Shown here one piece after another: positions 6,001 to 60,970 of a stretch of 64,000 nt of DNA. How positions within the stretch are numbered: position 1 is the stretch's first letter; each line of letters starts with the position of its first letter. A program made the position numbers and the translations under genes. The notes beneath the pieces were generated by a model. That model saw only the letters and a program-made list of their open reading frames with translations, searched no databases and was not told where the DNA came from. The stretch covers positions 18,935 through 82,934 of the IMG/VR virus record IMGVR_UViG_3300022719_000039, one strand, 5' to 3'. This DNA comes from a virus.

Positions 6001-9000
6001 GGTCAGATCATTATTATCTGTATTAGTATTTATATCCTCATTTTTTACATTGAAACTTAATCCCTGACCATCAAGAATTTTAGTTAATTCGTCTAACTTT
6101 GTAGGCTGACCTGTAATTTGCTCTATTATGTCTAATATTATATTCTTTAATTGTTGCCATAATGTTTCTTTTTTACCCGGAACAATATCTTTGTCAGCAG
6201 ATAAAGAAGTAAGCCATTTAGCCATACTTAGATTAGTGTATGCAAACGCTACTACTTCTTGTGGTGAATTATTAATTATATGACTAAGTTTACTCCTAAC
6301 ATCTGAAGGAGCATCAAGTATCTTATCTTTAATGCTATTAACAAAGGCTAGAAGGTCATTATCTAATCTTGCCTTATCTACAATCCCTCTTGATAAAATT
6401 GCATGAATAGCTTCATGTGCTAAAGCTTCCTCTAGGCTAACCTTTACCTCTTCAGTAGATTCTGCCATCTCTATTGCATTTCTGGCAAATGATATAGTAT
6501 TATTAGAGCTATCATATATAGCAAAAGCATTAGTATTACCTTGTGAAGATACAGATTCCGAACTCATATTAACTCCCAACTTTCTGGCGGCTTCAAGTAT
6601 AGGCATAAATTTTGAGTTTTCTAATCCAACGGATTTAGCAAAGTCTATTATGCTACCACTCCAATCAGCATTTGAAAGCTTATGAGTTACAGTACTAGTA
6701 TCTTTTTCTAATTGCTCTTTAGTAGCTAAAGGTTTTACACTTGAAAATAAAAAACCTTCATCTTCTTCTGTTTTTTGTTCCTTGTTTAAGTTAAATTCTC
6801 CTATAGCTAGAACTAGGTTAGACTTAGGTGCTTTTCCTTTAAGAGAAAAGTTAGTAATTATTTCCCCTTTACTGTTTTTAACTACTCCTACATCTGTTAC
6901 AAGTCCTCTGGTTTCATTTATAAAAGTATTATAATTAGAATAAACAGTACTATTATCTAATGGGCTAATATATTCTTTATTAGTGTTAGCCAAGTTTCCA
7001 TCTATATTCCTTAGTAATCTAGGAAGAGCTTTCTTGATTAAGGAAGATGATTCTATTTGGTCGATACTTATATCTTTAGAGGGTTTGGTTACTTTGAATT
7101 TACCATTCTTTTGTTGTATAGATTCCCTTATTCTAAGTATGGTTGTATCAGTTTTATCTTTTTTATTATAAAAAATTTCTACTCTTTTTCTAGTGCCTGA
7201 TTCATCTATATAAGATAATTCCAGTCTGTCTTGAGTAAAGTATACTCCACCTTTACCCTGAAAAGTAATCTGGTTAATAGTATCTTTTAACTTAATACCT
7301 GCCTGTGATGTTAGGAAGGAACTACTGTTAAGTGTAACATTTTCAATTAACTGTTTAATTAACCCTCCCACTCTTTCCTGAAATGGGGTAGTCAATCTTT
7401 GACTTACAAGCTTTACAGGAAACCTTTCTTCGTTAGGTGCCTCTACTACAGTATAAATAGCTCCTTTAGTATAAGTTTTATCCCTGTTATTGAGAACAGA
7501 TTCAAAATCTCTTGTTCTTCTGCTGAATTCTCTTTCAGATTCAGGAGCATTAAAGGCTTTAAGATTTGTAGAAGAAGAACCTATTGTATATAACTTAATG
7601 TTTTCCCCAAATGAATCAAATAACCTTACTTTTTTAGCTATGTTAATTATACTACCAGAGTTTAACTTTATTATTTTAGCATTACCTATATCTATACTTG
7701 ATTCTGTTTTAGATGCACCTTGCAACATCTTAGCAGCTTTATTTCTTAAAGACCTTATAGTTTGCAAATCTTTTTCAGCGCCTTTAATCCTCTCATCTTT
7801 TTCAGCCTCACTTAATGTTTGATTTCTACTTAATTTTGTCTTTAAGATTTCTATAAATTTATCTTTACCTAGTATAGTATTTACTGCTCCTATTTTATTT
7901 CCTTTACTATTTATTATTTCTATTGTTATATTATCAGGAGTTATGTTTTTTGTTTTCTTAGGTCTTACAACCCTTAAAGTTACTGTATCACCTTCAGATA
8001 ATTCCCCGTTTAATATGTCAAACATACCTGTACCCTCATCCAATGTATGTGATGAACCATCTGTAATGCTATTACTGGAATTATTAGCTGAATCTATAAG
8101 AAATATAGATGTAGTTCCTTCTAAATTAACAGATTCCTGTGGTACATTCTCTTGGGGGGTAGTTTCTTGAGAAGAAACCTCTTCTGGAATAGTTTCTTGA
8201 GTTAAAACTGGTTGTGGAGTAGTTTCTTCTGGAGTAGTTTCTTCTGGAATAGTTTCTTCTGGAATGGTTTCTTCTGGAATGGTTTCTTCTGTACGTGCAG
8301 ATTCTGTACTTTCATCTTGAGAAGAATTTACTTCTTGTAATACTCCATCAGTTCTGCTATCATCTGCATTTTCTTCATTTAAATCGGATAACTCTTTATT
8401 TCTATTTTCTTCTGGTTTCTCATTGTTTTCCCTTGCTTCTTTCCGTGCTTGATTTGCTTCCTTTAAATCGTTAAGTCTGTCTACTTCTCTATCGACTATC
8501 TTTGCAGCTTTTTCTCGTATACTAGGTTCGGGAATAGATTCAGCAAATTCTTGAAGACTTTTTATAGCATTGTCAATTTGTTCATTAGTAGCTGAATTGA
8601 AGTTAGGTATTTCAGCATTTATAGCTTCTTTTACCGCCTTGTTCAAAAACTTACTTGCATCACCTTCAATTTGTTTAAAGTCATTTTTAGCTGTTTCTAC
8701 TGCTTCTTCTGAAAAAGAATTATTTACTTCTTGTTCAAGTATGGGAACAAGTTCATCAGAGGCTAATAAGTCTGCCTCTAAGTCTATTATTTCTCTTAAA
8801 GCTGAAGTAACATTTTCATTGTTTACTTCTATATTTGATAGATCAATAACATCTTCATCCTTGTTTAATTCTTCTCTCTTTCTTTCTAGGTTTTTAATTA
8901 AGTTATCAAACCTTTTGGTAGGAGCTTCGGTAACACCTTCAGGACTATTCAAAGCATTTAAAGAGGTTCTCTCTATTTCTGATAAAACCTGAAGCTGTGG

Positions 9001-10863
9001 TATTAAAGAATTTATTGCTTTTAATGTAATTGACTTATCAACATCACCTTCAATTACATCTCTAACTTGTTTAAGTACACCTGAATTTAATTTTAAGGTA
9101 GCTAACTTATCTCTTAAATTATCTTGTTTATCTTTTTCAATAGATAATTTTCTACTCTTTGCAGCAAATCTTTTAGCCAGTAGGTTTTTAATTTCTTCTT
9201 CTTCATCTTTAACAGTTACTATCCTATTGTTTAATTCTTTAAATATAGATTCTCCTGTTTCTATACCTCTAGTTAGCTCACCTACTGCATTTTGTATACC
9301 TTCTTCTGTAGCAAACCCTAATTCTATTAGTTTTTTCTGAAAATCAACATCTTCAATCTGATTTAGAGCTAATCCTACATTACCTGAACGTGCTGAAGAA
9401 AGACCAATATCAACACCTAAATCATTTACTATTTCTCTTATCTTCCCCTCTTTACGTTCATCTGTAAATTTGCTATAGTCTACCTTTTTTCCTGAAGGAG
9501 TTTCTACAGTATCACCATCTTGTATAGATTTTATCAAACTTGCTACTTTACCTACCTTAGCTTTCCTAGCTTCTATTTCACCTAGTCTCCCTTTAAATCC
9601 TGTGGGAACATTTCTCGGCCTTACTAGTTTTGCTCCTCCTTCAAAAGCAACCCCACCTAATACACCAAAAAGAGCAGCTTCATAAAATCTTCCATCTGAA
9701 GTATATTCAGCAAGTCTTTCATCAAATGTAGAATCGTCTAATCCTACTAAGTTTTTTCCTAAAGAAAGTCCTTCCCCTGTACCTACAAAATTTACCATTT
9801 CTTCTACACCTTCAGTAAGTTGCCTTCCTGTAGAAGAATATATAGGACTAAACCTGTCCAATATCCTATCACCTATCTTGACTTCCTTCCCTAAATTAGC
9901 TTTGGATAGTCTTCTGCCTGCTCCTGCTCTTGTAAGTAATTTGCTCAACCCACCAAAAGCTACAGCAGTTTGAGCGAAGTCAAATACTATATTAGCAGAG
10001 TTTACAGCATAACTTCTCCAAGCCGCTTTAGCAGCAATAAAATCCGTTAGACTTTCTTTTGTTACTTCTCTACCTTCTTCACGAAGTTCTTTAGCTGCAT
10101 CAGATTGAAGTGCTTTTTGCCAAGCTTCTTCATTTTTAAACCTGTTGATTAACATTTGTCTTGTTTGCAGTATTACTTCCCCACCTTCTCTAAAGTTCTC
10201 ACCATTCCTCATTATTCCTGCTGCTGTACCAGTTTTTGCTAAGAATTTAGCAGTACTACCTATTCTTCTGCTTAAATTAGATAATCTTGCCAAGTATGAA
10301 GCTGCTCCTACTGTACCTACTGCTGGTAAAAGTAAACCTAGAGTTGAAAATACAGATACCCCATTTTGGAACCACCAAGCAGGGTCTTTTATATCAAATG
10401 TTTCATTAGGATTCTCTTGAAATATAGGAAATTCTTCACGTCCAAACTCCCTTATACTTCTTCCTAGTTCTATTATGTCATTATTAAAGTCAGCATCTTG
10501 ATTATTTATTTCATCGAATACTGCTTCGCCTAGCGCCCCAATAGAACCTATTCCTTCTATAGTACCACCTACAACTTCTCCTAATACTCCTTGAGCTAAG
10601 AAATTACCAAATTGATTTAAAGTAGATTGGTGTTGTGCTCTTAATAACCTATTATCTGCATTTGGTTTTATATTAAAATTAAACTTTCTAGTATCTATAG
10701 AAAAGTCAATAGCTCCTAATCCTTCCTGTGTAGGTAAACTGTTTAATACATCCTTTAAACCAGAAGGAATACCCGTAGTTATATTAGCTCCTTCTACTAT
10801 AGGAATACCCCCGGGATCATCAGTTAATCCTGCATTTACAAGACTTTCTCTACTTAACGGCAT
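1..10863 (-). CDS. Giant virion-associated RNA polymerase polyprotein (crAss-type two-barrel vRNAP plus zincin domain plus N-terminal cargo-like region); 3' end lies outside the window, >3621 aa
   Basis: ATG at 10863 (MPLSRESLVNAG...). The ORF track lists no long minus-strand ORF here, consistent with a frame that has no stop before the window edge. In-frame motifs: DFDVD at 2287-2301 in QMNSDFDVDELF, LGIRIPTDSKS near 2400-2430, KYSTIPLIPRL near 3325-3360, HEAIH at 6403-6417. Lies downstream of the crAss tail module. Confidence 0.9.
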   Translation of the reverse strand, partial: MPLSRESLVNAGLTDDPGGIPIVEGANITTGIPSGLKDVLNSLPTQEGLGAIDFSIDTRKFNFNIKPNADNRLLRAQHQSTLNQFGNFLAQGVLGEVVGGTIEGIGSIGALGEAVFDEINNQDADFNNDIIELGRSIREFGREEFPIFQENPNETFDIKDPAWWFQNGVSVFSTLGLLLPAVGTVGAASYLARLSNLSRRIGSTAKFLAKTGTAAGIMRNGENFREGGEVILQTRQMLINRFKNEEAWQKALQSDAAKELREEGREVTKESLTDFIAAKAAWRSYAVNSANIVFDFAQTAVAFGGLSKLLTRAGAGRRLSKANLGKEVKIGDRILDRFSPIYSSTGRQLTEGVEEMVNFVGTGEGLSLGKNLVGLDDSTFDERLAEYTSDGRFYEAALFGVLGGVAFEGGAKLVRPRNVPTGFKGRLGEIEARKAKVGKVASLIKSIQDGDTVETPSGKKVDYSKFTDERKEGKIREIVNDLGVDIGLSSARSGNVGLALNQIEDVDFQKKLIELGFATEEGIQNAVGELTRGIETGESIFKELNNRIVTVKDEEEEIKNLLAKRFAAKSRKLSIEKDKQDNLRDKLATLKLNSGVLKQVRDVIEGDVDKSITLKAINSLIPQLQVLSEIERTSLNALNSPEGVTEAPTKRFDNLIKNLERKREELNKDEDVIDLSNIEVNNENVTSALREIIDLEADLLASDELVPILEQEVNNSFSEEAVETAKNDFKQIEGDASKFLNKAVKEAINAEIPNFNSATNEQIDNAIKSLQEFAESIPEPSIREKAAKIVDREVDRLNDLKEANQARKEARENNEKPEENRNKELSDLNEENADDSRTDGVLQEVNSSQDESTESARTEETIPEETIPEETIPEETTPEETTPQPVLTQETIPEEVSSQETTPQENVPQESVNLEGTTSIFLIDSANNSSNSITDGSSHTLDEGTGMFDILNGELSEGDTVTLRVVRPKKTKNITPDNITIEIINSKGNKIGAVNTILGKDKFIEILKTKLSRNQTLSEAEKDERIKGAEKDLQTIRSLRNKAAKMLQGASKTESSIDIGNAKIIKLNSGSIINIAKKVRLFDSFGENIKLYTIGSSSTNLKAFNAPESEREFSRRTRDFESVLNNRDKTYTKGAIYTVVEAPNEERFPVKLVSQRLTTPFQERVGGLIKQLIENVTLNSSSFLTSQAGIKLKDTINQITFQGKGGVYFTQDRLELSYIDESGTRKRVEIFYNKKDKTDTTILRIRESIQQKNGKFKVTKPSKDISIDQIESSSLIKKALPRLLRNIDGNLANTNKEYISPLDNSTVYSNYNTFINETRGLVTDVGVVKNSKGEIITNFSLKGKAPKSNLVLAIGEFNLNKEQKTEEDEGFLFSSVKPLATKEQLEKDTSTVTHKLSNADWSGSIIDFAKSVGLENSKFMPILEAARKLGVNMSSESVSSQGNTNAFAIYDSSNNTISFARNAIEMAESTEEVKVSLEEALAHEAIHAILSRGIVDKARLDNDLLAFVNSIKDKILDAPSDVRSKLSHIINNSPQEVVAFAYTNLSMAKWLTSLSADKDIVPGKKETLWQQLKNIILDIIEQITGQPTKLDELTKILDGQGLSFNVKNEDINTNTDNNDLTQFMIPLETNKKADTGSLSNVETRLAVNAIIPLFEISKRNNPDFSEEQHKTTIIDAFKRKSVELNESQRTNVNRVLTEFGNIWEITKDKIVQQSGVAAFEDVLNQESVLLVKPFEDEGTLSINPKNRVTDLLKSIIRTTFAVEKIDITKDGKKRYVPKTSNFLGLKQFLDFDSVYPYLLNNLANIHSTEGMLFKLGQLSRFDPSLGYLKDQLESNERWLSAWFSHFSNQSPRADLDIVELLDDDSITHKTLISNNNSPQLNLASEWSTNILSRFEDGLFSIKEVRTKINKLERLLDNFPKNKDSIFKELSNVYSLLGFDVVRDGENFLEQMFEAESQDAIGLNSFGNPSSLLEFRFITPLNRILNTLSEGGVDILGDIRRVTRRTSLYRFDVTENSYLNGENNLVQSVYLPTFLSDFFALAKSQIPEEKTEFKRQLLNYLNSKNLNRSNWLRQIVKFEGDNFLTDSEGLPVLNTDFLERFGYTLFDAVKNADEFVGTKYSKLDNNGWNLINVLKFINDTDVLNRKTINTAKYSIPIPSDGGVVYYIRSKRYRGNFSPGGVLQKGNELHDALRNIILQEMDSMIHAKNALFELDNDGLPVVDAETRELKLKEGLKEEQLLLDYHYTLDSNGNRVYSKDGIPVGRVFQFHHFPSLNNSNLRLNGVIKNGLQGNESIEQIEDAIAEFVFLETQRVKESFEPIRKNIESITSKQNLNYDEFVSEFALNYFIANTETLNLFIGSPSEFKESSNDGQVNKRAKGFIVPGIKGSGINTKNNITYKVLADVVFSSKLANRVEELTNKETANLYRNFESTDASGYITLERLKNILLDEGKLTPNLEELIERASRGENLESDELQTLLEPRKGFYHGRFFDNDLGIFVTRQIKYSTIPLIPRLTKGLEIDKIRTDMEGNGVDEVIYASASKVGTKNVTRIHDEEGNVNIASLKSAPIETIPSRFWQTVLEVPGHIQDSRTKLATQVSRIFHGNLQKDKKYTVDGKSIQGDKLLKLFFDIYSQNIVDSGTRLVEELGGIIENDDLQTTLLNLQKLRSIFRKEASDRLLPLNYDQALQTPLTGKEEFNLPLFSPNLGRKFEALATSLFTNRVTNQKLPGFAAVQFSNTFMKRGQTVEDLGEVLDTGIEYTKEVLEREEGLELQYVEKGNIMEAEVLVPRWTSKFFSKNGNPVPIDSIPDEALEMLGIRIPTDSKSTTVVLKVVGFLPKESSSLINIPKELAVQMNSDFDVDELFMFRYNLDNNRKKIKYNSSKLPSDNSIQARENRLIDIMRSVLSDKKHRVEVLNATGFSRLEKAADRLDELKGVKQLEQAFSSYSSQLSFRKQNIAGRELKGIAANLNSFLPVAQEIKGRIRKDIAFKFKYSKKALDVDTVRKRYADSIVNEDKDSITIEFSNVGHTVDGSNLNIQGELLTEISAETLAAAVDNVNNPVLGRIGTTTLTFPIFHSLVSTGIDINTAASFISQPSVGLISEVNDRKEAETAIITEIIAVTRNVTLERAKVIAETFKKLKRAEVVQRLGFNPYKVTAFSFGQLNKAIKDSSKFPLLTKEGQEVDRSQERLTYLSNQLRVVHNFYTFKKASDAINTTVQASKLDTIGAGPFLSTTDEILNKIRDASIYPFDFGNNKEQLGPRFLSGEQAAIQAILPLDLTQDSPIIDVEESAYKPLAAFYNYSNLLSLKFYSNVFIQASRAYRNLSNFAVNRGVKNDPALLNRLHNFSTSTLLRLGNDFFAHIDTARVMGITQNNADDLRESNKSTAQKLKELKQKRKDLLGTGEHILDFLNPKISESDIEENKGLHIIDFRQVNDNNRENILTESLLNMINATNATIESKLRKGQKLNKEEQDRVDLRELGEDLIRYSFATNGMNFGRNSFSNIIPTETLVSLGVGKTLGNALKVANKSDVMDVFDFVHIGDFIRNNWKNPDVVPRVRGRKWRPNSKGYLVVNKESNEYNKVASAPFIYNPRFSFKDKKFIQDSDFIYARIGESNNNVFYTPV
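8161..8290 (-). repeat. Coding 15-bp tandem repeat giving a (P)EET(I/T) low-complexity linker in the giant protein
   Basis: Repeated agtttcttctggaat/ggtttcttctggaat units, translating to EETIPEETIPEETIPEETTPEETTPQ. Confidence 0.85.
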
Positions 10864-10866
10864 GCT

Positions 10867-13095
10867 TTAAAAACGTTTTTTAAGTCCTTCTATAAGTTCT
10901 TTAGATGCATTTGCTTCTGCTGCCTGTATAAATAAAAGTGTATTAATAAGGCCATCTCTTGTAGCAAATGATTTTTTAAATTCAGTACCATCATCAAGAG
11001 GAACCGTTAGTTTAAAAGGGGCTAAAGCTTCAGCCCCCCTTGCATTGTTAGAAGCTCTTTCAATCTTAGCTATAGTATTTGGTTCCTTTTTGTTTGTATC
11101 AGGATTTACCCTGTTATTAAATATTTCTACAGTGCCCTTACCCGAAGCTGTATTTTCTATTTTTGATACTTTGCTAGACATTAATAACCTAGCCGCATCT
11201 CTATTTCCTCTTTTAAGTAAAACAGGCATAATACCTATAGGAGCATTTATAGCTACTTTACCTTTGACTGCATCAGGTACGTCATCTCCATTTATATTTA
11301 CTACCAATTTAAGTTGAGGATCATCTGGTAAAGTTGCCGTACCTAATATAGTAAAGTCATCTTTATCTATGCTACCAAACTCATCTAATTCATCAGCAGT
11401 AAATTTTAATTTTTGTGTAGAAAGAGGTCTTGGTACTATACTTGAGTTTTTAAAGTCTTGATTGAATGCAGAAATTGCTATATCTTCCATTTGTTGTTTT
11501 ATTATTTTACCTTCTTTATCTTCAGGTATTGTTGTTATACCAAACGTTTCAGGTCTTATAACAGACTTGTCTTTCAATAATTCTTTCATTTTCTTAAATA
11601 CCGGATCAACTTTAGCCTGAGCTTTAAATCTTATTCTTTCTACTGTTTTTTGTTGTTCTGGTATTAAAAGAGATGTGTCAACATTATTATTTGCGGTAAG
11701 ATTGTTATTAAACTGAGTTTTTTGTTGGTTTGTAACTCCTTTTCTAAACTTAGTTTTATCCGTAATTTCAAAACCTCCTGATACACCGGGTGTAAATTCA
11801 AGTAAATGATTTTTAATTGCGTTAATTCCAGCTTGTTTAGCCTCATCTGTTACAACATGTTCTTCTAATCCTAATTCTTCTAATGCTTCTTCTTTTAATG
11901 AATTTTCGAAGTCTTGAGCATCCTTTATTTGATTATTTATTTGTTCTAATCTGGCACTTATAAAAGGTTCTAAACTAGGATCAGTATTATTTGTCAATTG
12001 ATTCTCTAATGCTGCTTTTTGTGCTTCAAATGAAGCTATACCGCTTTTTACATCTCCAACATCTTTAAAAGGCGAACCTTCTACACCTATCATGTCTATG
12101 GTAGTAAAACCACCTGTAACATCAGGATCATCATCACTACTACCTGTTGTTCTAGTACCTGTTGTTCTAGTACCTGTTACACCTTTAAATTTATCAAATC
12201 CAAATATATTGGCTGCTGTATTAGAAGCTCCTTCTATTTCTGAAGTAAATAGTACATCAGATAATACTTGTTTTACAGACTTCCCTTCATCTAGTTGTTC
12301 TTGTATTTCTTTTTTTGTATCTTCATCATCTATATTAGATAATAACTGTTCCTTCACTTGTTCATCAGTTAAGCCTGCTGTTCTTATAAAGGCTTCTTGA
12401 TCAAAAAAAGCTTTAACTGAGGGATCACGTCTTAATATATCTAATCCTGCTGCTCTTATATCATTTTCACTTGCCTGCTCTAGTTGAATAAACTGACCGT
12501 CACCTGTTGGTATTAGTCTACCACTAGACTCAAATTTACTTAGAATTTCTGAAAGTTTTTTATCTACATCTACTCTTTCTGCTACTGTTCTAGGAACAAA
12601 AGTTGTAAAACCCCCAGTTCCATCAGGTCTTGTACCTCCTTGAGCAGTAAACTCTGTTAGAGCAGCTTGTAATAATCTATTTTGTGTAGTAGCATCAAGA
12701 TCAGATTCTCTAACTTGTTCCCTAAACTTACCAAAAGCTTCTCCGCTTGTCTTTAATGCACCTAAATCACCTCCTAGCAATCTCCTTTTTACATCTCGTG
12801 CAGTTCTTCTGGCAAAACTTAACGACCTGCTCAAATCTCCTCCACTTTCTTGTATTTCATTATCTATAGAACTTCTTATATCGTTTATTGCTTGTTTTAC
12901 TTTATCTTGTTCAGTAACCAGTCCTCCTATTTCTATACTTTCATCTATGGCATCAAATAATAAATTAGATTGATTAAAAGCCTGTTGTCTGGTTTCTAAC
13001 CCCCTTGCTATTTCTTGAAAAGGTAAAGGGACAAATTGTGAAACTTGTGTTTGTCTAGGTACAAACCTAGCCGGTGTATCAAATCTGCTAGCCAT
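10867..13095 (-). CDS. Putative internal virion (cargo/ejection) protein, 742 aa
   Basis: N-terminal SQFVPLPFQE motif resembles crAss cargo proteins next to the vRNAP. Helical and coiled-coil character. Assigned mainly by synteny. Confidence 0.6.
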   Translation of the reverse strand: MASRFDTPARFVPRQTQVSQFVPLPFQEIARGLETRQQAFNQSNLLFDAIDESIEIGGLVTEQDKVKQAINDIRSSIDNEIQESGGDLSRSLSFARRTARDVKRRLLGGDLGALKTSGEAFGKFREQVRESDLDATTQNRLLQAALTEFTAQGGTRPDGTGGFTTFVPRTVAERVDVDKKLSEILSKFESSGRLIPTGDGQFIQLEQASENDIRAAGLDILRRDPSVKAFFDQEAFIRTAGLTDEQVKEQLLSNIDDEDTKKEIQEQLDEGKSVKQVLSDVLFTSEIEGASNTAANIFGFDKFKGVTGTRTTGTRTTGSSDDDPDVTGGFTTIDMIGVEGSPFKDVGDVKSGIASFEAQKAALENQLTNNTDPSLEPFISARLEQINNQIKDAQDFENSLKEEALEELGLEEHVVTDEAKQAGINAIKNHLLEFTPGVSGGFEITDKTKFRKGVTNQQKTQFNNNLTANNNVDTSLLIPEQQKTVERIRFKAQAKVDPVFKKMKELLKDKSVIRPETFGITTIPEDKEGKIIKQQMEDIAISAFNQDFKNSSIVPRPLSTQKLKFTADELDEFGSIDKDDFTILGTATLPDDPQLKLVVNINGDDVPDAVKGKVAINAPIGIMPVLLKRGNRDAARLLMSSKVSKIENTASGKGTVEIFNNRVNPDTNKKEPNTIAKIERASNNARGAEALAPFKLTVPLDDGTEFKKSFATRDGLINTLLFIQAAEANASKELIEGLKKRF

Positions 13096-52499: not shown

Positions 52500-53120
52500 A
52501 TGATTGAAGTAGATAAGAATGTACAAGTAACAGAAGAAAGCATGGGTAACAGATTTAAAGCCGGTATCCATGAAAAAGTTACACTTTCCAGTTGTAAGTA
52601 TGTAAAACCGGAAAGTGAAGATGCTAAATGGAAAGAGGCAATAGATTTTGTCTTCTCAGCTACAAAAACTTCCTATAAGAAAGATATGGAAGGAAATGTA
52701 GTTAAAAACAATCAGGGAGAAAAGATTGTAATATCTGAAGCAGGGGATTCTATAACAAAGAGAGAATTCTATGATGAAGATAGTACAGATCAGAAAAAGA
52801 AAAACTTTTCTAAAAGGATTAAGCATATCCTTACAAAGTTTGTCCCTGAAGAAGAGGCCGTAGTAAAAGGTACAACTCTTGAAAAGTTTGCAGACGCAGT
52901 TAATAAGAAATTAGAGGGTAAAACCGAGGGTGTATATCTTGATGTAAAAGTAGTAATGGATAGAGGGTATACACAAATACCTAATTATACACCATTTATA
53001 CAATTACATGGACAGAGAAACCTGACCATTTCAAGTAAAGAACTCCAAGAGGATACTGCTCCTTCAACTTTTGCTGATTTAAATACAGAAGATGAAGTGT
53101 TAGACGTGCCTTTTGAATAG
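52500..53120 (+). CDS. Putative single-stranded DNA-binding protein (start ATG 52500)
   Basis: Acidic C-terminal tail ending DEVLDVPFE, located between the recombinase and primase. Confidence 0.6.
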   Translation: MIEVDKNVQVTEESMGNRFKAGIHEKVTLSSCKYVKPESEDAKWKEAIDFVFSATKTSYKKDMEGNVVKNNQGEKIVISEAGDSITKREFYDEDSTDQKKKNFSKRIKHILTKFVPEEEAVVKGTTLEKFADAVNKKLEGKTEGVYLDVKVVMDRGYTQIPNYTPFIQLHGQRNLTISSKELQEDTAPSTFADLNTEDEVLDVPFE

Positions 53121-53204
53121 TACTGAGTAAGCCACCTCCAACGAAAACTTGCTAAAAGCTGTTAAAAGTTGGAAGCTATTCAGTGATTTATGGTTTAGGT
53201 TTGG

Positions 53205-53240
53205 GTAAGGGTACTATTAAGTTAGTACCCTTACTTTGTT
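53205..53240 (+). terminator. Intrinsic terminator
   Basis: GTAAGGGTACTA-TTAAGT-TAGTACCCTTAC followed by TTTGTT. Confidence 0.8.
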
Positions 53241-53251
53241 TAAATACTACT

Positions 53252-54244
53252 ATGATTTCTACACCAGAAGAATTAACAAAGGAAACAATTTTAAAGTATG
53301 TTGATGAAAGAAAAATATATGAGCAGGTATTAGGACATGAAGCAGAATTATATCAGTTAATAAAATCACCATTAAGACAAGACAAAAATCCTTCCTTTAA
53401 TCTTTATATCAATAAGTATAACGGTAGGATATGGTTTAAGGATTTAGGTACTGGTAAATCAGGAGATTGTTTTAAGTTAATTGAAATGCTTTACGGGTAT
53501 AGTTATCATGAAACTTTGCTTTATATAGATGACCTGTTTAATTTAAATATAGCAAAAGGTGAAAGTTTTATAAACAACAAACCCAATCAATTCCCTTCTA
53601 GGATTTCTAAACCCAAGAGAAGATCACTTATTCAAATAAAACATAAACCATTCAATCAATACGATTTAACTACATGGAAGCAATGGAATATAACATTAAA
53701 ATATTTAAAATATTTCCAAGTGTTTCATGCAAGATATGTATGGATAAATGGGTATAGGGTAGATAGACTAAGTTACACAGAAAACAATCCTACTTATGCA
53801 TATCTATTTGGAAAAAGATTTAAAATATATAAGCCTAAAGAAAAGGATAAGCAGTGGAAGTGGAGAAGTAACTGCTCTAAAGAAGATATACAAGGTTGGA
53901 AACAATTACCTGAAAAAGGTAATCATCTTATTATAACCAAATCTTATAAAGATGTAATAATGCACAGGACAATAGGTTTACCTTCTATAGCACCTAATGG
54001 TGAAGGTTACAGTATACCTTACAACAAGGTAGCAGACATAAAGAGGAGGTTTAAGAATATTCATATAATTTATGATAATGATACTACAGGTATAGAGAAC
54101 GCTAAAGTTATAGCAGAAAAATATGATTTACCTTATTCATATATACCAAAAGAGTATAATGAAAAAGACCCTTGTGAGTTTGTAGAAACTTATGGAATAA
54201 AAAAATATAAAAAATTACTATTAGACTTTAATATAATAAGTTAA
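53252..54244 (+). CDS. DNA primase (crAss-type DnaG/TOPRIM), start ATG 53252
   Basis: SPLRQDKNPSF, FKDLGTGKSGDCF, IITKSYKDV, IYDNDTTG, KDP. Confidence 0.85.
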   Translation: MISTPEELTKETILKYVDERKIYEQVLGHEAELYQLIKSPLRQDKNPSFNLYINKYNGRIWFKDLGTGKSGDCFKLIEMLYGYSYHETLLYIDDLFNLNIAKGESFINNKPNQFPSRISKPKRRSLIQIKHKPFNQYDLTTWKQWNITLKYLKYFQVFHARYVWINGYRVDRLSYTENNPTYAYLFGKRFKIYKPKEKDKQWKWRSNCSKEDIQGWKQLPEKGNHLIITKSYKDVIMHRTIGLPSIAPNGEGYSIPYNKVADIKRRFKNIHIIYDNDTTGIENAKVIAEKYDLPYSYIPKEYNEKDPCEFVETYGIKKYKKLLLDFNIIS

Positions 54245-54263
54245 CCTTAAAAACAACCGGAAA

Positions 54264-54968
54264 ATGAATGCATTTAGTGTAAAAAAAGAAGAACTATTTA
54301 ACGTTCCCATTCCTCAAAAAACTGATAGTTATACACCTGTACCTAATAGAGATTTAATACTTGCTATTGAAGAAGTATTAGATAACTACGGTTATAATAC
54401 AATAGCTGAACATTATGAATTAGGTGGTAAAGGCCAACAAATGTTTGGTTATAAGACATTAGTTAGTCCATCGTATAATGGTGATGGAGAACAACAAAGA
54501 ACTCTAGGTTTCAGAAACTCTTACAATAAAAGTTTAGCAGTAGGTATTGTTAGTGGAAGCAGAGTAATAGTATGCTCCAACCTAATGTTTGAAGGAGATA
54601 TTGTTAAATTAAGAAAACATACTACTAATGTATTTGCAGACCTATATAACATGATTGTAGATGCTATACTTGGTATAGAAATAAATTTTGAAAAACTATT
54701 GAAGGATACAGAAAGATTAAAGAGTTGTGAAATTAGTAAGACTGACATGGCTGAACTTCTGGGAAAAATGTTTATAGAGGAGGAACTTATAACATCTACA
54801 CAGCTTAACCATATAAAAAATAGTTGGAAAGAAAAAGGTGAAGAACATATGACTGGTTGGGATTTTATGAATTATTGCACTGATAGTATGAAAGTATTAC
54901 ATCCATCAACAAGGATAGATTCTCAACTAAAGGTTCATAATTATATAGATACAACCTTCAAAGCGTAA
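54264..54968 (+). CDS. DUF932-like phage protein
   Basis: YTPVPN, RNSYNKS, RVIVCSNL, RKHT. Confidence 0.75.
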   Translation: MNAFSVKKEELFNVPIPQKTDSYTPVPNRDLILAIEEVLDNYGYNTIAEHYELGGKGQQMFGYKTLVSPSYNGDGEQQRTLGFRNSYNKSLAVGIVSGSRVIVCSNLMFEGDIVKLRKHTTNVFADLYNMIVDAILGIEINFEKLLKDTERLKSCEISKTDMAELLGKMFIEEELITSTQLNHIKNSWKEKGEEHMTGWDFMNYCTDSMKVLHPSTRIDSQLKVHNYIDTTFKA

Positions 54969-54997
54969 ATTAAAAGTTAAACTTAAAAAATGAAATC

Positions 54998-55255
54998 ATG
55001 GAAAATAACTTTATAGGCGGTGGAACATTTCGATTTGGAAAATATAAGGGAAAGTCATTCATTGATGTAGCCTTATCAGACGAGGCCGATTATTTTATCT
55101 GGCTTTGGGAAAGATCGGAAAAAGGTAAATTATATTTAGATTCAGATTTACATGAATTTATTAAGAAAAACTTGTCGAGATTACGTCAAGAAGCAAAGAG
55201 ATGCAAAGAAGCCTATGAAGCCGATAGGTACGACGAGCTTATGAGAGACTGGTAA
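54998..55255 (+). CDS. Small protein with an FGKYKG motif (exodeoxyribonuclease X C-terminal-like)
   Basis: FRFGKYKGKSFIDV....DYFIWL. Confidence 0.65.
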   Translation: MENNFIGGGTFRFGKYKGKSFIDVALSDEADYFIWLWERSEKGKLYLDSDLHEFIKKNLSRLRQEAKRCKEAYEADRYDELMRDW

Positions 55256-55287
55256 AGTAGAAATTAAAGACAAAAACGTAGAAAATT

Positions 55288-56250
55288 ATGACAAAAGTTA
55301 AAGAACAGGCCAGAAAAAGGCAAAAGGGCCTAGATGCTATTACCAAGGAAATACTACCTACTACTATTTGGAAATATGATGGGCATAGAATTGTTCCTAA
55401 AAGGAATAATGGAGCCATAGAATTAAAAAATATAGAAGCCTTAAAACCGGTTACCAATATGAAGGTAACCGGTAATTACAGAGAAAGAAAAGAGCAGATT
55501 AATAAATTAAAAAGTAAGGTCGATGATAGAGAAAGCATAATTAAAGCTGTTCTACAGGATCAAAATAGACTTATGGCTTATAAGAGAAGCACAGACATTC
55601 TTGATGAAATGACATTAGAATTTCTTGAACATAGAGTATATGAGTCTAAGGAGATATTAAAGAAAAAAGATAAACAAGTTCAAAAGCAGTTAGACCTTGT
55701 AGGCCATCCTATAGTTAGTATTGCCAATAACGTTGCAGGTATTGGGAAGATGACTATTGCATATATGCTTGTATATGTTGATATAAGTAAATGCAATTAT
55801 GCAGGAAACTTATGGAGCTATGTTGGCATAGTCAAGCCTTCTTATGAAAGGTATTCAAAAGGAGAAAGTAGCGGAGGATGTAAACCACTTAGGGTGGCTC
55901 TTCATAGGACTGCTACTTCAATTATAAGAATGAGGGGCAGAACTGAAATGAATAAATATATAGAGGTTTATGATAGAGAAAAGCTAAGGTTATCTAAGTC
56001 TAGACAGATAACTAAATCCAGAAACAGAAAAGGAGAACTAAAAGAAATGGCTTGGAAAGATACTATGAAAAGCCATAGACACGGTGCAGCTATAAGGAAG
56101 GTTATTAAACATATCTGTGCTGACTGGTGGTTTGTACATAGAACTTTAGAAGGTCTGCCTACACCAGAACCTTATGTCATGGATTATTTAGGACATAAAA
56201 ACTGGATAAGACCAGAAGAAAGAGGATGGAAAATACACCCAATAAAATGA
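55288..56250 (+). CDS. TIGR-associated (Tas)-like protein: N-terminal HNH-like motif, coiled coil, IS110/Nop RNA-binding domain
   Basis: VAGIGKMTIAYML, NLWSYVG, GGCKPLRVAL, YIEVYDREK and RHGAAIRKVIK match the IS110 C-terminal/Nop domain. No DEDD RuvC domain is visible. N-terminal DGHRIVPKRNNG...KNIEAL.PVTN. Immediately followed by a dual-spacer array. Confidence 0.8.
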   Translation: MTKVKEQARKRQKGLDAITKEILPTTIWKYDGHRIVPKRNNGAIELKNIEALKPVTNMKVTGNYRERKEQINKLKSKVDDRESIIKAVLQDQNRLMAYKRSTDILDEMTLEFLEHRVYESKEILKKKDKQVQKQLDLVGHPIVSIANNVAGIGKMTIAYMLVYVDISKCNYAGNLWSYVGIVKPSYERYSKGESSGGCKPLRVALHRTATSIIRMRGRTEMNKYIEVYDREKLRLSKSRQITKSRNRKGELKEMAWKDTMKSHRHGAAIRKVIKHICADWWFVHRTLEGLPTPEPYVMDYLGHKNWIRPEERGWKIHPIK

Positions 56251-56270
56251 ACTTAATTAAAAGGGAGTTA

Positions 56271-56564
56271 ATGAATTATTAAAGATGATTAGTAGTCAAT
56301 AAACTGAAATGAATTAAAAAACCAAAAATAGTAGTCAAATAACCTAAATGAATTAATAGCCAAAATATTAATCATAACCCTTAAATGAATTAATTATAAA
56401 AAGTTTCAAAAAGAGTTAATGAATTAAAATACAATAATTTTAATATCAGGGAATGAATTAAAGGAAAGAAGAATACATGAGAAAAAAATGAATTAAATAA
56501 AATAAGTACTATAAAACTTAAATGAATTAAAGATGACAAAATCTCAAATTACTAAAATGAATTA
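56271..56564 (+). ncRNA. TIGR-like array block 1 (8 complete units plus terminal edge repeat)
   Basis: ATGAATTA at 56271, 56309, 56348, 56385, 56419, 56453, 56488, 56522 and 56557. Each unit is edge, 9 nt, loop starting with A and ending TCA/ACA/TTA/CTA, 9 nt, A. Confidence 0.85.
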
Positions 56565-56576
56565 AAACAGGAGATT

Positions 56577-56753
56577 ATGAGACAAATCCTTGCTTTCTTT
56601 GATAGAAACTACAACCGATTGTTTAATAATAAAAAATGTATTAAGGTTAATTTCCACGAAGATGAGTTTGAATATCAAGACATACTATTTGATGGTAAGG
56701 AATACTTTAGATACTTAGGTAAAGGTTGGTTAGTTAAAAAAGTTTTAATTTAA
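56577..56753 (+). CDS. Small ORF (58 aa) between array blocks
   Basis: MRQILAFFDRNYNRLF...YLGKGWLVKKVLI*, preceded by AGGAG. Confidence 0.55.
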   Translation: MRQILAFFDRNYNRLFNNKKCIKVNFHEDEFEYQDILFDGKEYFRYLGKGWLVKKVLI

Positions 56754-56762
56754 AAGTATTAA

Positions 56763-56867
56763 ACGAATTAAGGCTAGTAACTTTTCAAGAGAAAATAATA
56801 AATTAGTGCCTCCAATTTTTCAATAGAAACTAATGAATTAAAATAGTGAAAAAAATCAAAAAAAGCG
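56763..56867 (+). ncRNA. TIGR-like array block 2 (3 units)
   Basis: ACGAATTA 56763, ATAAATTA 56798, ATGAATTA 56833. 35-nt period, loops ending TCA. Confidence 0.75.
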
Positions 56868-56921
56868 GCTCAATTTTGTTAAACTAAAAAAAAATGAAAG
56901 CAAAAGAAAAAAAGAAGAAAA

Positions 56922-57182
56922 ATGGACATTAAAAAAAGGAAGATATGGTGTATTGTAGAGAGAAAAAACTTTAGTAAAGATTCAGCATCATGGGAAGAAC
57001 ATCTGATAAAAGCTAATGTTGACCATTATGAAGCGGAACAATATATTAATTCTACTAAAAACAAAAAAAGAGTCCTGTTTGCCTATGCTCGTCATCCTAT
57101 AAGTGGAACAATGGATATGATGTGGAACTTACGATATGTAGATAGTGAAAAGACGGTTAAGAAGTATGCGAAGCTTAAATAA
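56922..57182 (+). CDS. Hypothetical protein
   Basis: Co-oriented ORF. Confidence 0.55.
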   Translation: MDIKKRKIWCIVERKNFSKDSASWEEHLIKANVDHYEAEQYINSTKNKKRVLFAYARHPISGTMDMMWNLRYVDSEKTVKKYAKLK

Positions 57183-57338
57183 AATTCAATTATCACAAGA
57201 AAGGACGATGTTAACTAAAAAAGGAACATATAGTAGTTCTGAAATTCTTTCTATAGAAACTATTGAATCTTGCAGATCATACTATCGTTTAAGAAATACA
57301 GACAACCGTATTATTCACTTTAAATTAACATAAGATAA

Positions 57339-57767
57339 ATGAAAAAAGTTATTCCAGAATATAAAATAGAAGAAAACGGGGATATTGTTATAGATATAGA
57401 ACCTAAAGCAAACCATAGACCAAGATTCCAGAAGAATACTGGCACAGCCTATATACCAAATGACTACAAAAGATATGTTGAGCTTTTAAAAAGAGCCTTT
57501 AAAGATGCAAACATTCCCAAGAAAGAATGGATAGGTTTAGACATAATTTTTTACCTGAAAACAAATAAAGACCATTTTATACCGCATAGGAAGAAACCAG
57601 ACTGGGATAATCTGGCTAAAGGTGTTATGGATGCTTTAGTTAAAGCTAGGATTGTAAAGGATGATTGTACTATTTCTTATGGTTCAGTATATAAAGTTAA
57701 TAGTGTTAAAAATAAAGTCGTAGTTAAGTTATTACAGTTACATGAGTTGCCTTCCTTTATCAACTAA
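57339..57767 (+). CDS. rusA: RusA-like Holliday junction resolvase
   Basis: PKANHRPR, KKPDWDNLAKGVMDAL, DDCTI. Confidence 0.88.
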   Translation: MKKVIPEYKIEENGDIVIDIEPKANHRPRFQKNTGTAYIPNDYKRYVELLKRAFKDANIPKKEWIGLDIIFYLKTNKDHFIPHRKKPDWDNLAKGVMDALVKARIVKDDCTISYGSVYKVNSVKNKVVVKLLQLHELPSFIN

Positions 57768-57776
57768 TAAAGAATT

Positions 57777-57977
57777 ATGCATATAAAAGACTTAAAATCA
57801 TATTTAGAGGATGGAGAAGGTTCAATAGTTTATAATAAGCTGGAAGGAAAAAGATTGCAGGTTTATAACCTAGAAAGGAATACAGTTATGTTTCATGAAG
57901 TTGGAGATATTAATAAAAGAGCAGGGGCAGTAAATTATCCTTTAGATACTAAATACTATAAGTTAATAAAGAAATGA
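57777..57977 (+). CDS. Hypothetical protein
   Basis: ORF with ATGA coupling to the ligase. Confidence 0.5.
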   Translation: MHIKDLKSYLEDGEGSIVYNKLEGKRLQVYNLERNTVMFHEVGDINKRAGAVNYPLDTKYYKLIKK

Positions 57978-59188
57978 TGTATGCACTAACCAAGAATGGA
58001 AATATAAAGACATATAAAGTTTCCGTAGATGATAATACCATTCTAAGAGAATCAGGACTACTGAATGGTAAAATAACTACTAAAGAAGAAGTTATAACCA
58101 AGCCTAAAAATATAGGTAAGTCTAACGAATTAAGCCCTAATGAAGTAGCAAAAAGCAAAGCTAAACATTATACTTACCGAGCTAAGGTAGATGGTTATAA
58201 GTCTATAGATGATATAATTACAATTATAAATGAAGGCAAGTCTGAAGTAATAGGAACTGATAAGTATGTAGGAACTGAAGAGTATATATTAAAATATTAC
58301 AGAGATAACTATAAATATAACTCCGATAATTGTAGAAGACCTAAACCGATGCTTGCTAATAAAATAAGAAATGATATATTTGATAGAAACCAATCAGTAT
58401 TTGTGCAAAGAAAGTATAATGGTATAAGATGTATGGCTGCACTTATCAATTATAATATATTTCTTTTTTCCAGAGATGGAAAGTTATTCAATATTCCTCA
58501 TATCACTGAAGAATTAAAATCATACTTTAAGCCCAAAGATAATAAAAGGTTTTTCCTAGATGGAGAAATATATATTCATGGTAAAAAGCTACAAGATATA
58601 ATTTCACTTGCAAAAGCACCAGATATGTTTGAAACACTTAACTTAGAGTTTCATGTATTTGATATGGTTTTTGGTAATCATGAGACAGGGGAAGGAAATA
58701 AGAGATGGTTTGAAAGATTAGTAGAACTGACAAAACTATTTAAGAATAGAATTCAAGATAAAGTAAAACTAGTTGATACAGTCGAAGTATTTAATCAAGA
58801 CGAATTGTCAGAGATACATAATAAATTTACCAATGAGGGATATGAAGGAAGTATCCTACGTCTAGACAAAGGTCTTTATGAATTCGGATATAGAAGTAAT
58901 TACCTTCTAAAGTTAAAATCAACTTTGAAAGAGATAGTTAAAATAGAAAATGTAGTTGATACAGATAAAGAAAAAGGTATAGCCTTGTTTGTATGCAGAG
59001 ATAAAAGGGGTAACTTATTCAATTTAAGACCAAATGGTAGTGTAGGCAACAAAGTAGAATGGTTTAACCAAGCAAATACAGGTGGGCCTAAAGACCCAAC
59101 AGGAAAAGAAATAGAAATAACTTTTCATGAACACACTAAATATGGAATACCTTTTCATATAACTAAAACAAAGATAATATGGGATTAA
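57974..59188 (+). CDS. ATP-dependent DNA ligase
   Basis: PMLA, QRKYNGIRC, FSRDGK, LDGEIY, FHVFD, EGYEGSILR, LLKLK, GIPFH. Confidence 0.92.
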   Translation: MMYALTKNGNIKTYKVSVDDNTILRESGLLNGKITTKEEVITKPKNIGKSNELSPNEVAKSKAKHYTYRAKVDGYKSIDDIITIINEGKSEVIGTDKYVGTEEYILKYYRDNYKYNSDNCRRPKPMLANKIRNDIFDRNQSVFVQRKYNGIRCMAALINYNIFLFSRDGKLFNIPHITEELKSYFKPKDNKRFFLDGEIYIHGKKLQDIISLAKAPDMFETLNLEFHVFDMVFGNHETGEGNKRWFERLVELTKLFKNRIQDKVKLVDTVEVFNQDELSEIHNKFTNEGYEGSILRLDKGLYEFGYRSNYLLKLKSTLKEIVKIENVVDTDKEKGIALFVCRDKRGNLFNLRPNGSVGNKVEWFNQANTGGPKDPTGKEIEITFHEHTKYGIPFHITKTKIIWD

Positions 59189-59454
59189 CTTTTTATAATA
59201 TTAAATTCCTCGATAAATTTAACATGTTTTCTTTAGTAGACAGAGAAGATATAAAACAACTCAAGGCTGAAATATTTAATAATAACAAGGAAAGAAAAGA
59301 TAAATGTATAAAAGAAATTACTAAAATATCAGATAAGGATTACAGAGAGATTCTTTATATAGATAACTTTGTATTTCTAAGAATAGGAAGTAATTATAGA
59401 ATTATAGGAATTGATAATGAAATAGTAAAAAAATGGAAACAACAGAACAAGTAA
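59179..59454 (+). CDS. Hypothetical protein
   Basis: Overlapping, co-oriented ORF. Confidence 0.45.
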   Translation: MGLTFYNIKFLDKFNMFSLVDREDIKQLKAEIFNNNKERKDKCIKEITKISDKDYREILYIDNFVFLRIGSNYRIIGIDNEIVKKWKQQNK

Positions 59455-60425
59455 AGTTATTAGATTATTACAAAAGACCTGAAATTTCAAAGAGTGATTT
59501 AGTCTTATTTAATACAGTAGGGCCTAACAAGTTTAACTTTATAAAACAGGAGCAGTTCCTAAGATTGGAAAGTTCTCCAATAGAGGAAAGTAAAAGTTTA
59601 AAGAAAGGTAAAGCTTTACATGCTGCTATACTTGAACCAAAAGTGTTTAAAGAATTTTATGTGCCTGTAGAATATGAAACACCTAAGTCACCGCAACAGA
59701 TAAAGTTTTGTAATTTAGTAGTAGACAAGTTATCAATGCAAGTTCCATTGGATAAGTCTATATTGGAATCTGCAAAAGAATCTTATTCCAGTAAGAATAA
59801 GTCTAATAGTGATATGTATAGTACGGGCATAGGTTTATATGAGCATTTAGAAAGTTACATTGATTTTCTAAAATTTTCAAAGACTGATGAGATTGTTATT
59901 CTAACTAAGAAAGAGCATGAATACATATTGGGAGCTAAGGACGCTTTAGAAAAAGATCCGGTTACTAAAGATATTCTATATCATAAGCTTGAGGAATCTT
60001 TTGTAGAGGAAGAGATTTACTGGACAAGAGGTAATATGGACTTGAAGTCCAAGTTAGACAAGCTTGATATAGATTTTAGTAAGAAATATGCCGTGCTTAC
60101 TGATCTTAAAACTACAAAAGCACCAAATCCCAGTAGTTTTATTTGGGAAGTAAACAGATATAAAATACACTGGCAGGTTGATTACTATAAACATGCTATT
60201 ACTTGGAAATATCCAGAGCTGGAAAAGATATACAATAGAATAGTAACAGTAGAATTACAACCTCCTTTTGATCATTGTGTGTATAGTGTTGGTAGAGAAA
60301 AACTGCAAACTGCTTTTATAGAGTGGAGTAAAGTTCTGGAAGAGTTAGAATGGCACTATATAAACAATGTTTGGCAGGACAAAGATTACTATGAGAATAA
60401 GCTTGTAATAATAGATGAAGAATAA
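59433..60425 (+). CDS. PD-(D/E)XK exonuclease (RecE/ExoVIII-like, DUF3799-like)
   Basis: ISKSDL, GKALHAAILEP, KSKLDKL, TDLKTT, QVDYY. Confidence 0.85.
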   Translation: METTEQVKLLDYYKRPEISKSDLVLFNTVGPNKFNFIKQEQFLRLESSPIEESKSLKKGKALHAAILEPKVFKEFYVPVEYETPKSPQQIKFCNLVVDKLSMQVPLDKSILESAKESYSSKNKSNSDMYSTGIGLYEHLESYIDFLKFSKTDEIVILTKKEHEYILGAKDALEKDPVTKDILYHKLEESFVEEEIYWTRGNMDLKSKLDKLDIDFSKKYAVLTDLKTTKAPNPSSFIWEVNRYKIHWQVDYYKHAITWKYPELEKIYNRIVTVELQPPFDHCVYSVGREKLQTAFIEWSKVLEELEWHYINNVWQDKDYYENKLVIIDEE

Positions 60426-60437
60426 ATTAATCATCTA

Positions 60438-60540
60438 ACGAATTAATATAAAGAAAAATACAATAGTTGGCAATGAATTAAGAAAACAAAGAGTCAAAGA
60501 AAAACAATGAATTATGAGAACCAATTTTCAATACAATTAA
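60438..60540 (+). ncRNA. TIGR-like array block 3 (3 units, remote from the tas-like gene)
   Basis: ACGAATTA 60438, ATGAATTA 60473 and 60507. Same 9-nt/loop/9-nt layout, followed by degenerate ATGTTTAT at 60541. Confidence 0.78.
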
Positions 60541-60571
60541 ATGTTTATTTTAAACTAAAACTAATAAAATT

Positions 60572-60970
60572 ATGAAAAAGCTAGCATTATTAATTATCGC
60601 ATTTGTATTCTTTAGTGTTGTAGAAGCCCAGAACACAGGACAAATAAACGATGATGTGTTTAAACCTTCTAATAACATACTTCTCTCCAATGAGGTAATG
60701 ATCTTTAAAGGTGGTAAGTATCAAGGTAGTATTGTTATAGAGAGAATAGATTACGGGTTTTCAGAACAAATAAATATATTCGATGGAATATTTGATGACA
60801 ATATTAAAAGGAATGAGGATGCTTATTACGGCATTGATAGCTATAACAATAATAATTATAATAACACGAACTATAACTATGGCAGCAAAGGAGAACAAAA
60901 AAGACAAATAAATCCTTCTACTAACCCTGATTATAGACTAGCTGAAAGTTTGTTGAATTTAAGTAAATAA
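60572..60970 (+). CDS. Secreted/periplasmic protein with a signal peptide and Asn-rich tract
   Basis: MKKLALLIIAFVFFSVVEA|Q, a Bacteroidota-style SPI cleavage site. Confidence 0.65.
   Translation: MKKLALLIIAFVFFSVVEAQNTGQINDDVFKPSNNILLSNEVMIFKGGKYQGSIVIERIDYGFSEQINIFDGIFDDNIKRNEDAYYGIDSYNNNNYNNTNYNYGSKGEQKRQINPSTNPDYRLAESLLNLSK

Follow-up and report, generated by a model that had tools for sequence, protein, structure and literature searches.

A TIGR-Tas locus of the TasH clade with replaced catalytic histidines in a crAss-like phage

TIGR arrays consist of alternating edge and loop repeats that enclose two short spacers, each bordered by bases of the box C and box D types (Faure et al. 2025, PMC12045711). 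Their guide RNAs (tigRNAs) are 36 nucleotides (nt) long and are cut in the edge repeat (PMC12045711, PMC13421893). A dimer of the Tas protein pairs spacers A and B with opposite DNA strands, and no protospacer-adjacent motif (PAM) is needed (PMC12045711). A recent catalogue lists 20,096 tas loci and 6,685 arrays, and ties the uniform 36-nt length of dual-repeat guides to the reach of a Tyr/His (Y/H) dyad (Xu et al. 2026, bioRxiv 10.64898/2026.09.09.750476). In SpTasH, the Tas protein of Salicola phage CGphi29, this dyad is Y289/H296, which cuts the precursor (pre-tigRNA) in the edge repeat (PMC13421893). The natural roles and targets of these systems are termed unknown in both PMC12045711 and bioRxiv 10.64898/2026.09.09.750476. 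The locus described here lies in a window of 64,000 nt, the whole stretch analysed, which is the final 64 kb of the 82,934-bp virus record IMGVR_UViG_3300022719_000039; the record has direct terminal repeats and a completeness rating of 100%. It comprises a tas gene and an array in three blocks, and is very probably a dual-repeat TIGR-Tas system of the TasH clade situated among the replication genes of a crAss-like phage whose 83-kb genome is complete.

The tas gene occupies positions 55288..56250 of the window on the + strand and encodes a protein of 320 amino acids (aa); its assignment to the TasH clade draws on the list of open reading frames (ORFs), phmmer, AlphaFold2 and Foldseek. An earlier reading, made from the DNA letters alone (the sequence-only reading), had described the product of this ORF as an IS110-C-terminal/Nop-like protein. 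Transposase_20 (PF02371, IS110 C-terminal) is indeed its sole Pfam match, at 22.8 bits against a cut-off of 21.3, and its PHROGs label is 'transposase'. Among the chains of the Protein Data Bank (PDB), phmmer ranks the TasH of Salicola phage CGphi29 first (E = 3.4e-67, residues 30-315 aligned to 27-308) and TasR (9MTY, E = 6.9e-11) second. The tblastn identity to SpTasH is 41.8%. In a large protein collection, 121 homologs passed E <= 1e-10, the top one sharing 54% identity, and two homologs carry the Pfam HNH mark (PF01844).

The AlphaFold2 model, built on 47 homologs, has a predicted local distance difference test (pLDDT) score of 90.1, with 88-95 over the first 60 residues. Strands at residues 31-34 and 49-52 and a helix at 54-61 are followed by long helices at 69-99 and 107-138. 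The protein is thereby ordered into an N-terminal beta-beta-alpha (HNH-like) domain (~1-65), a coiled coil (69-138) and a Nop domain (~139-320); it has the RNA-binding Nop domain and coiled coil of TIGR-Tas proteins, together with the HNH fold of the TasH subtype. The sequence-only reading had proposed a comparison of the predicted fold with Tas proteins, and the outcome favours its interpretation: the top Foldseek match is TasH 9W04_B (E = 3.2e-25, template modelling (TM) scores 0.84/0.87, 310 columns including the N-terminus), followed by TasR and then by the IS621 bridge recombinase (E = 1.7e-4, TM 0.44). An IS110 transposase was considered and rejected, on the grounds that only the C-terminal PF02371 matches, the N-terminus is a beta-beta-alpha domain of 65 residues, and the TM score to IS621 is low. 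Compared with its seven nearest homologs, the Nop domain has Cys at residue 198 in place of the near-invariant Asn of GGNK, and a 6-residue insertion at residues 218-224, around GRTEMN.

The array begins close behind the gene, with the first AATGAATTA edge 20 bases past the tas stop codon, and has 14 units in all. Block 1 (56270..56564, + strand) contains nine exact AATGAATTA edges and 8 units of 38, 39, 37, 34, 34, 35, 34 and 35 nt. Block 2 (56762..~56876, + strand) has the edges AACGAATTA, AATAAATTA and AATGAATTA spaced 35 nt apart, giving two full units and another whose 3' edge is degenerate. Block 3 (60437..60548, + strand) is found 3.9 kb downstream of tas, in the gap that separates an exonuclease-like gene from the next ORF; its edges are AACGAATTA, AATGAATTA and AATGAATTA, then AATGTTTAT, and its units measure 35, 34 and 34 nt. 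The sequence-only reading had placed gene and array together at 55288 to 56867, an extent that does hold block 1; it has to be widened to take in block 3, which lies outside and was unlisted, and the degenerate-edged block 2 belongs to the array as well.

Could such short, AT-rich repeats have arisen by chance? The window contains 24 copies of ATGAATTA where 8.2 +/- 2.6 are expected, a number reached in 0 of 100 shuffles, and nine of the copies stand in series on the + strand (56271-56557). Across the whole genome (82,934 bp), 12 pairs of AATGAATTA sites (<=1 mismatch) are separated by 33-40 nt, every one of them on the + strand and confined to the three blocks, while 50 shuffles gave a mean of 0.72 pairs and a maximum of 3. 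In keeping with the remark that such an array would escape repeat finders, Tandem Repeats Finder detects only 2.7 copies, in the region of the loops of units 1-2 (56290-56393). Here the first two units have TAGTAGTCA in common in their loops, which exceed the other loops by 3-5 nt, and the array may combine two loop types. A scan against Rfam matched no family.

The 14 units, aligned by their left and by their right ends, give a grammar of AATGAATTA, 8 nt, AA (12/14 and 14/14), a stretch ending in [T]CA, 9 nt, and AATGAATTA again. Edge positions are conserved in 12-14 of the 14 units and spacer positions in 5-9; at the loop end, (T)CA, the C is present in 12/14 and the A in 14/14. The bases before the spacers are UUA (edge) or UCA/UUA/ACA/CUA (loop), and those after the spacers are AA, with the counts given above at the loop starts and 13-14/14 at the edges. 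The box C- and box D-type flanking bases are alike in edge and loop, and the layout is that of TIGR-Tas arrays: edge, short spacer, loop, short spacer. This flanking motif is unlike the UG...CCA of TasR and resembles the AAG...CCA of SpTIGR. A by-eye check for covariation of the second loop base with the middle base of the closing triplet found no consistent pattern.

The fixed grammar proposed in the sequence-only reading holds in part. Its eight A/B spacer pairs in block 1 are reproduced exactly at 9+9 nt, but the loop is not a conserved repeat. Likewise, a parse with 9-nt spacers works, but 8 nt is equally allowed and is the length used by relatives and by SpTasH; the spacer length is thus 8 or 9 nt, and homology with the relatives suggests that the ninth base may belong to the repeat. 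Six units are 35 nt long, five 34 nt and three 37-39 nt. No unit has 36 nt because loop length varies, and the array lacks the uniform 36-nt unit of dual-repeat systems. As a separate observation, 11/14 units (window 56271-56564) spell ATGAATTAA (Met-Asn-stop) with their edge and the base that follows it, because the first spacer base is A; this recurrence is probably mere A-richness (49% A in the array regions).

Profile scans recovered 71 related loci (48 viral, 23 metagenome), none above ~56% identity, and a single-sequence scan of viral contigs gave no closer relative. In 65 of the 71, a phased array with a period of 35-37 nt and related edges stands beside tas. Once duplicate proteins are removed, 252 spacings are left: 234 of 36 nt, nine of 35 nt (all in one locus, L079), four of 37 nt and five of other lengths, three of which come from a doubtful chain in L037. 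The unit of the relatives consists of an edge AA[AG]TGAAT[CT]A (10 nt), 8 nt, a loop AAGAnAnCCA (10 nt) and 8 nt, and the edges of the present array are homologous to those beside tas homologs, which read AAATGAATCA, TGAATTA and AATGAATTA in L017, L020, L021 and L079. Spacer segments vary in these loci and the repeats are fixed, the opposite of what the sequence-only reading had named as evidence against itself.

The closest locus found, L079, is a metagenome contig fragment with 56% identity over the C-terminal 147 residues of Tas. Its edge (AATGAATTA) and grammar (8 nt, AA...TCA, 9 nt) agree with those of the present array, but it differs in its uniform 35-nt period and its conserved loop AAnnTATCA over 9 spacings (array 463-860). 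The contig ends short of the N-terminal domain, so the likeness covers the C-terminal part of the protein. The last, altered edge of the L079 array, AATGAATGA, appears to supply the ATG of a downstream ORF.

An alternative is that the repeats are DNA sites, either iterons or regulator-binding sites of the replication module, and that the IS110-like neighbour is a coincidence. The blocks do lie among primase, RusA, ligase and exonuclease genes, and no Rfam family was matched. This explanation is barely credible, given that the same edge family with two-spacer phasing adjoins tas homologs in unrelated contigs, every copy is on the tas strand, and the protein is a TasH homolog and not a transposase with a DEDD domain. 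The homology to TasH, the fold, the published TIGR grammar and the homologous edges all support the identification as TIGR-Tas, and the fit in protein, layout and flanking bases bears out the sequence-only interpretation. The locus genuinely belongs to TIGR-Tas, in the TasH clade, and is a further example of a known system; it is not a new system, since TIGR-Tas was published in 2025 and its arrays, by the thousand, were catalogued in 2026. Its unusual features are the irregular unit length, the replaced catalytic histidines and the crAss-like carrier.

Does this TasH still cut DNA? The codons of the HNH-like motif (His33, Arg34, Asn48, Asn57 and Thr61) lie at 55384..55470 on the + strand, as placed by an ungapped alignment of residues 30-62 to SpTasH 27-59. 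Asn57 aligns without gaps to SpTasH His54, and Thr61 to His58; the catalytic His of the TasH subtype, represented by SpTasH His54, is absent. Among the 47 homologs, His is found at position 57 in 44 and at position 61 in 43, and Thr61 occurs in this protein alone. The related loci show the same conservation: 67/68 have His at position 57 and 66/68 at position 61. The family consensus of the N-terminal domain is D-T-D-R-I...P-K...G-G-x-Y...N...P-x-x-H-M-K-R-H-G, and the corresponding sequence here is D-G-H-R-I...N-G-A-I...N...P-V-T-N-M-K-V-T-G. Asp31, Arg34, Gly42 and Asn48 are invariant among the homologs, and all four are kept. His33 occurs in 7/47 homologs, all of which keep His57, and also in many related loci.

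At conserved columns, the match to consensus is 0.45 for the N-terminal domain, the lowest of the 47, versus 0.72 for the Nop part. In the phylogenetic tree the protein pairs with the homolog P0003, though the support is not strong (89/86), and both nest in a clade of eight (support 100/99) in which every other member retains the two histidines. At positions 33, 57 and 61, P0003 carries Asn, and so has no motif His left.

The C-terminal processing loop, by contrast with the histidines of the HNH-like motif, appears intact. Its dyad codons, Tyr296 and His303 (56173..56196, + strand), were identified by alignment as the counterparts of SpTasH Y289/H296; Tyr296 is conserved in 47/47 homologs and His303 in 44/47, and PYVMDYLGHKNWIRPEERGW aligns with SpTasH Y289...H296...R305. 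Judged from these residues, cutting has probably been lost and guide handling retained. An engineered precedent exists: SpTasH H54A, the nuclease-dead mutant of Guan et al., still represses when targeted (bioRxiv 10.64898/2026.08.11.744272). A natural TasH lacking the catalytic His is not described in the accessible portions of that preprint or of bioRxiv 10.64898/2026.09.09.750476. Given the replacement of His54 by Asn57 and of His58 by Thr61, and an N-terminal domain that has diverged unusually far throughout, Tas here is somewhat more likely to bind its targets and block them, in the manner of a repressor or roadblock, than to cleave them. One of the viral contigs, L029, encodes a Tas homolog with Arg and Gln at the two HNH His positions and Glu at the processing His, beside a regular 36-nt array of 7 edges; from its residues, this homolog may be another natural inactive TasH.

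From the observed homology, fold, array grammar and residue states, a scheme can be proposed for expression, processing, binding and biological role. Homology with SpTasH suggests that the arrays would be transcribed with the surrounding + strand genes. A Tas dimer joined by the coiled coils would bind each unit through its Nop domains, one protomer holding the edge halves and the other the loop, with contacts made through bases on either side of the spacers (U-U/C-A ahead of each and A-A behind it). Tyr296 and His303 would then cut the precursor inside AAUGAAUUA, releasing tigRNAs of ~34-39 nt, and the two 8-9-nt spacers would pair with opposite strands of adjoining DNA, again without a PAM. 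In its fullest form, this proposal is of a natural 'dead TasH' that has lost the cutting histidines and kept guide processing, tolerates guides of 34-39 nt with free-form loops, and serves a crAss-like phage as an RNA-guided repressor or roadblock against other phages of the same hosts, with an 18-bp site matched by unit 10 as a candidate target. Taken whole, it is speculative and unlikely to be correct in every part.

A number of points weigh against the main reading, a TasH-clade TIGR-Tas system whose protein would more probably bind than cleave. Asn at the metal site of the helix is normal in active nucleases of the HNN type, for example N863 of Cas9, and His33-Asn48-Asn57 could form a working H-N-N motif. 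The branch leading to the protein has a length of 1.28, versus a median of 0.24, which could mean decay. In the array, there is no conserved loop repeat: the loops share their ends only and are free in length (8-13 nt with 8-nt spacers), and their poor conservation could likewise point to decay. The array is also an exception in length to the rule of Xu et al., though each unit still starts and ends within an intact edge. A scan with a sigma-70 model for promoters and terminators was uninformative, with 27 sites versus 32 expected, and Bacteroidota-type promoters lie outside that model. Finally, the phage genome does not contain an excess of matches to its own spacers, as described below.

Could the protein instead be an active nuclease which, like SpTasH, cuts the DNA of rival phages, plasmids or the host? 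Its beta-beta-alpha fold persists and is confidently modelled, the invariant Asp31, Arg34, Gly42 and Asn48 are in place, His33 is a natural variant shared with 7/47 homologs and many loci, and Asn is a usual metal ligand in HNH/HNN enzymes. Yet nearly all relatives keep His57 and His61 whatever residue they have at position 33, the N-terminal domain is the most diverged of 47, and the sister P0003 has lost every motif His; moreover, H54A abolishes cleavage by SpTasH (bioRxiv 10.64898/2026.08.11.744272). On balance, active cleavage is somewhat unlikely.

The locus might also be a decaying, non-functional remnant of a TIGR-Tas system under relaxed selection. This would fit with an array that is split and has neither 36-nt units nor the uniform 35 nt of L079 throughout, with loops that share first and last bases only, and with a protein on a long branch that has lost its catalytic histidines, changed Asn198 of GGNK to Cys and gained six residues. 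Several features speak for maintenance instead: the ORF is intact and its model scores well, the Tyr/His dyad survives along with 72% of conserved Nop columns, and the phage genome is complete and leaves little room for non-coding DNA. In addition, nine edges in succession share the same 9 nt, which is not expected of drifting AT-rich DNA. Decay is therefore improbable, and a Tas that binds guides and blocks its targets is the preferred reading.

What might such a Tas bind? The expected target strand was taken to read as spacer A and then spacer B in reverse complement, as derived from the statements on an '8-nt 3' overhang' and 'C-5' in PMC12045711. The 82,934-bp genome, arrays excluded, was searched for all 14 spacer pairs (8+8 nt with a gap of 0-2, in both orders and on both strands), and 182 mis-paired combinations served as controls. 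The scan gave 0 exact matches, 2 with <=1 mismatch and 26 with <=2, where the controls predict 0, 1.5 and 32.5. As there is no self-target above chance in the whole genome, self-regulation through perfect or near-perfect self-targets was set aside.

The viral contigs of IMG/VR were scanned with three of the 14 units (10, 3 and 12), in the order A plus reverse complement of B. Unit 10 (window 56797-56831) matched 40 stretches, 12 of which are homologous copies of one gene (L098:379-816 (+), L082, L092, L096, L097, L101, L104, L108, L110, L117, L118 and L119). The site matches at 18/18 nt in six of these homologous loci and at 17/18 in the other six. It encodes I-E-T-W-R-H in a conserved 146-aa protein of AT-rich phages (PHROG 17028, no assigned function), which has distant homologs in Cellulophaga and Maribacter phages; one record is annotated 'repressor protein'. 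No homolog of this gene was found in the array-carrying phage.

Exact 18-mers were also found for units 3 and 12, in 1/9 and 2/19 independent gap-2 clusters, the scan for unit 12 covering 80 of at least 119 stretches. Over the three scans, 4/32 independent gap-2 clusters have the right central bases, versus ~2.4 expected from composition. On the target-phage contig G001 (94% complete), no other unit matches at <=2 mismatches in either order. Since units 3 and 12 also give exact 18-mers and no second unit matches on G001, the unit 10 match is indistinguishable from chance. By these controls the site was rejected as an assigned target, and it serves as a lead only.

The carrier is a crAss-like phage, as judged from its capsid, portal and terminase genes and a giant ORF, and this part of the sequence-only reading is supported. 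The genome is AT-rich (32% GC), its major capsid protein is 42-44% identical to those of the crAss-like phages cr118_1, cr113_1 and others (146 phage records matched), and PHROG matches were obtained for portal (1.2e-128) and terminase (1e-89). The terminase-portal-capsid genes have crAss-like sizes. The giant ORF (window 1-10863, - strand) is an open frame of at least 3,621 aa that runs past the window start, a gene type typical of crAss-like phages. Stop-codon recoding in window 2641-10867 was considered and rejected, because this open-ended ORF fills the region.

Around the array blocks, PHROG matches identify replication genes for a primase, RusA, a ligase and an exonuclease. A further ORF of 58 aa lies between blocks 1 and 2 (56577..56753, + strand); it has no PHROG match (E 0.01) and no Pfam match above cut-off, and an AGGAG ahead of its start falls inside the last block 1 edge plus the bases after it. 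This ORF may be an insertion that split the array, or not a gene. At the DNA level, positions 53000-60600 gave no match, near or distant, to phage records.

Is the system known from other crAss-like phages? Among the 146 phage records with a crAss-type capsid gene, none has a Tas match, and in 50,697 phage records the only Tas matches are to Salicola phage (two records) and one Microcystis phage. A crAss-type capsid gene was found in none of five large Tas-bearing contigs, which is weak evidence because that search returned no matches at all. A search of the accessible literature found no paper combining 'TIGR-Tas' and 'crAss'. TIGR-Tas systems are actively studied as compact, PAM-free genome tools, and the locus adds a case in a complete crAss-like phage genome, a group in which no other was found. 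It is an experiment of nature on whether TasH can do without its catalytic His, and its dual-repeat array with units other than 36 nt bears on the published idea that Y/H processing requires a fixed length. The picture of the family is unchanged, and the locus is a useful specimen rather than a discovery.

Among described systems, the closest is SpTIGR-TasH of Salicola phage CGphi29 (PDB 9W03, 9W04, 21KL), which shares the order of HNH-like domain, coiled coil and Nop domain and the C-terminal Tyr/His loop. Its array likewise lies directly downstream of tas and is of the dual-repeat type with short spacers, and repeats in both systems start A-A and end Y-C/U-A. The units of SpTIGR are a uniform 36 nt (10+8+10+8) with the conserved loop AAGACAACCA, whereas those described here range from 34 to 39 nt with non-conserved loops; SpTasH has His54 and His58 where the present protein has Asn57 and Thr61. 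Unlike SpTIGR, the array is divided into three blocks, and its carrier is a crAss-like, AT-rich phage.

More distant comparisons can be made on function and on fold. Dead TasR and TasA act as repressors (bioRxiv 10.64898/2026.09.09.750476), and MbTasA, CsTasR, PateTasR and SpTasH H54A provide examples of RNA-guided binding without cleavage, the role suggested for Tas in this phage. The dead RuvC of TasR is a nuclease fold that is retained but inactive, as is proposed here for the HNH-like domain (bioRxiv 10.64898/2026.09.09.750476). In the sections of these sources that are available, the natural repressors are TasA or TasR with a dead RuvC, mostly with stem-loop tigRNAs, while H54A is engineered. 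IS110/IS621 and the Nop5 protein of box C/D small nucleolar ribonucleoproteins (snoRNPs) share the Nop-type RNA-binding fold with this Tas, but the present system has no DEDD/RuvC domain, no single bridge RNA and no fibrillarin partner, and the likeness is distant when set against that to TasH.

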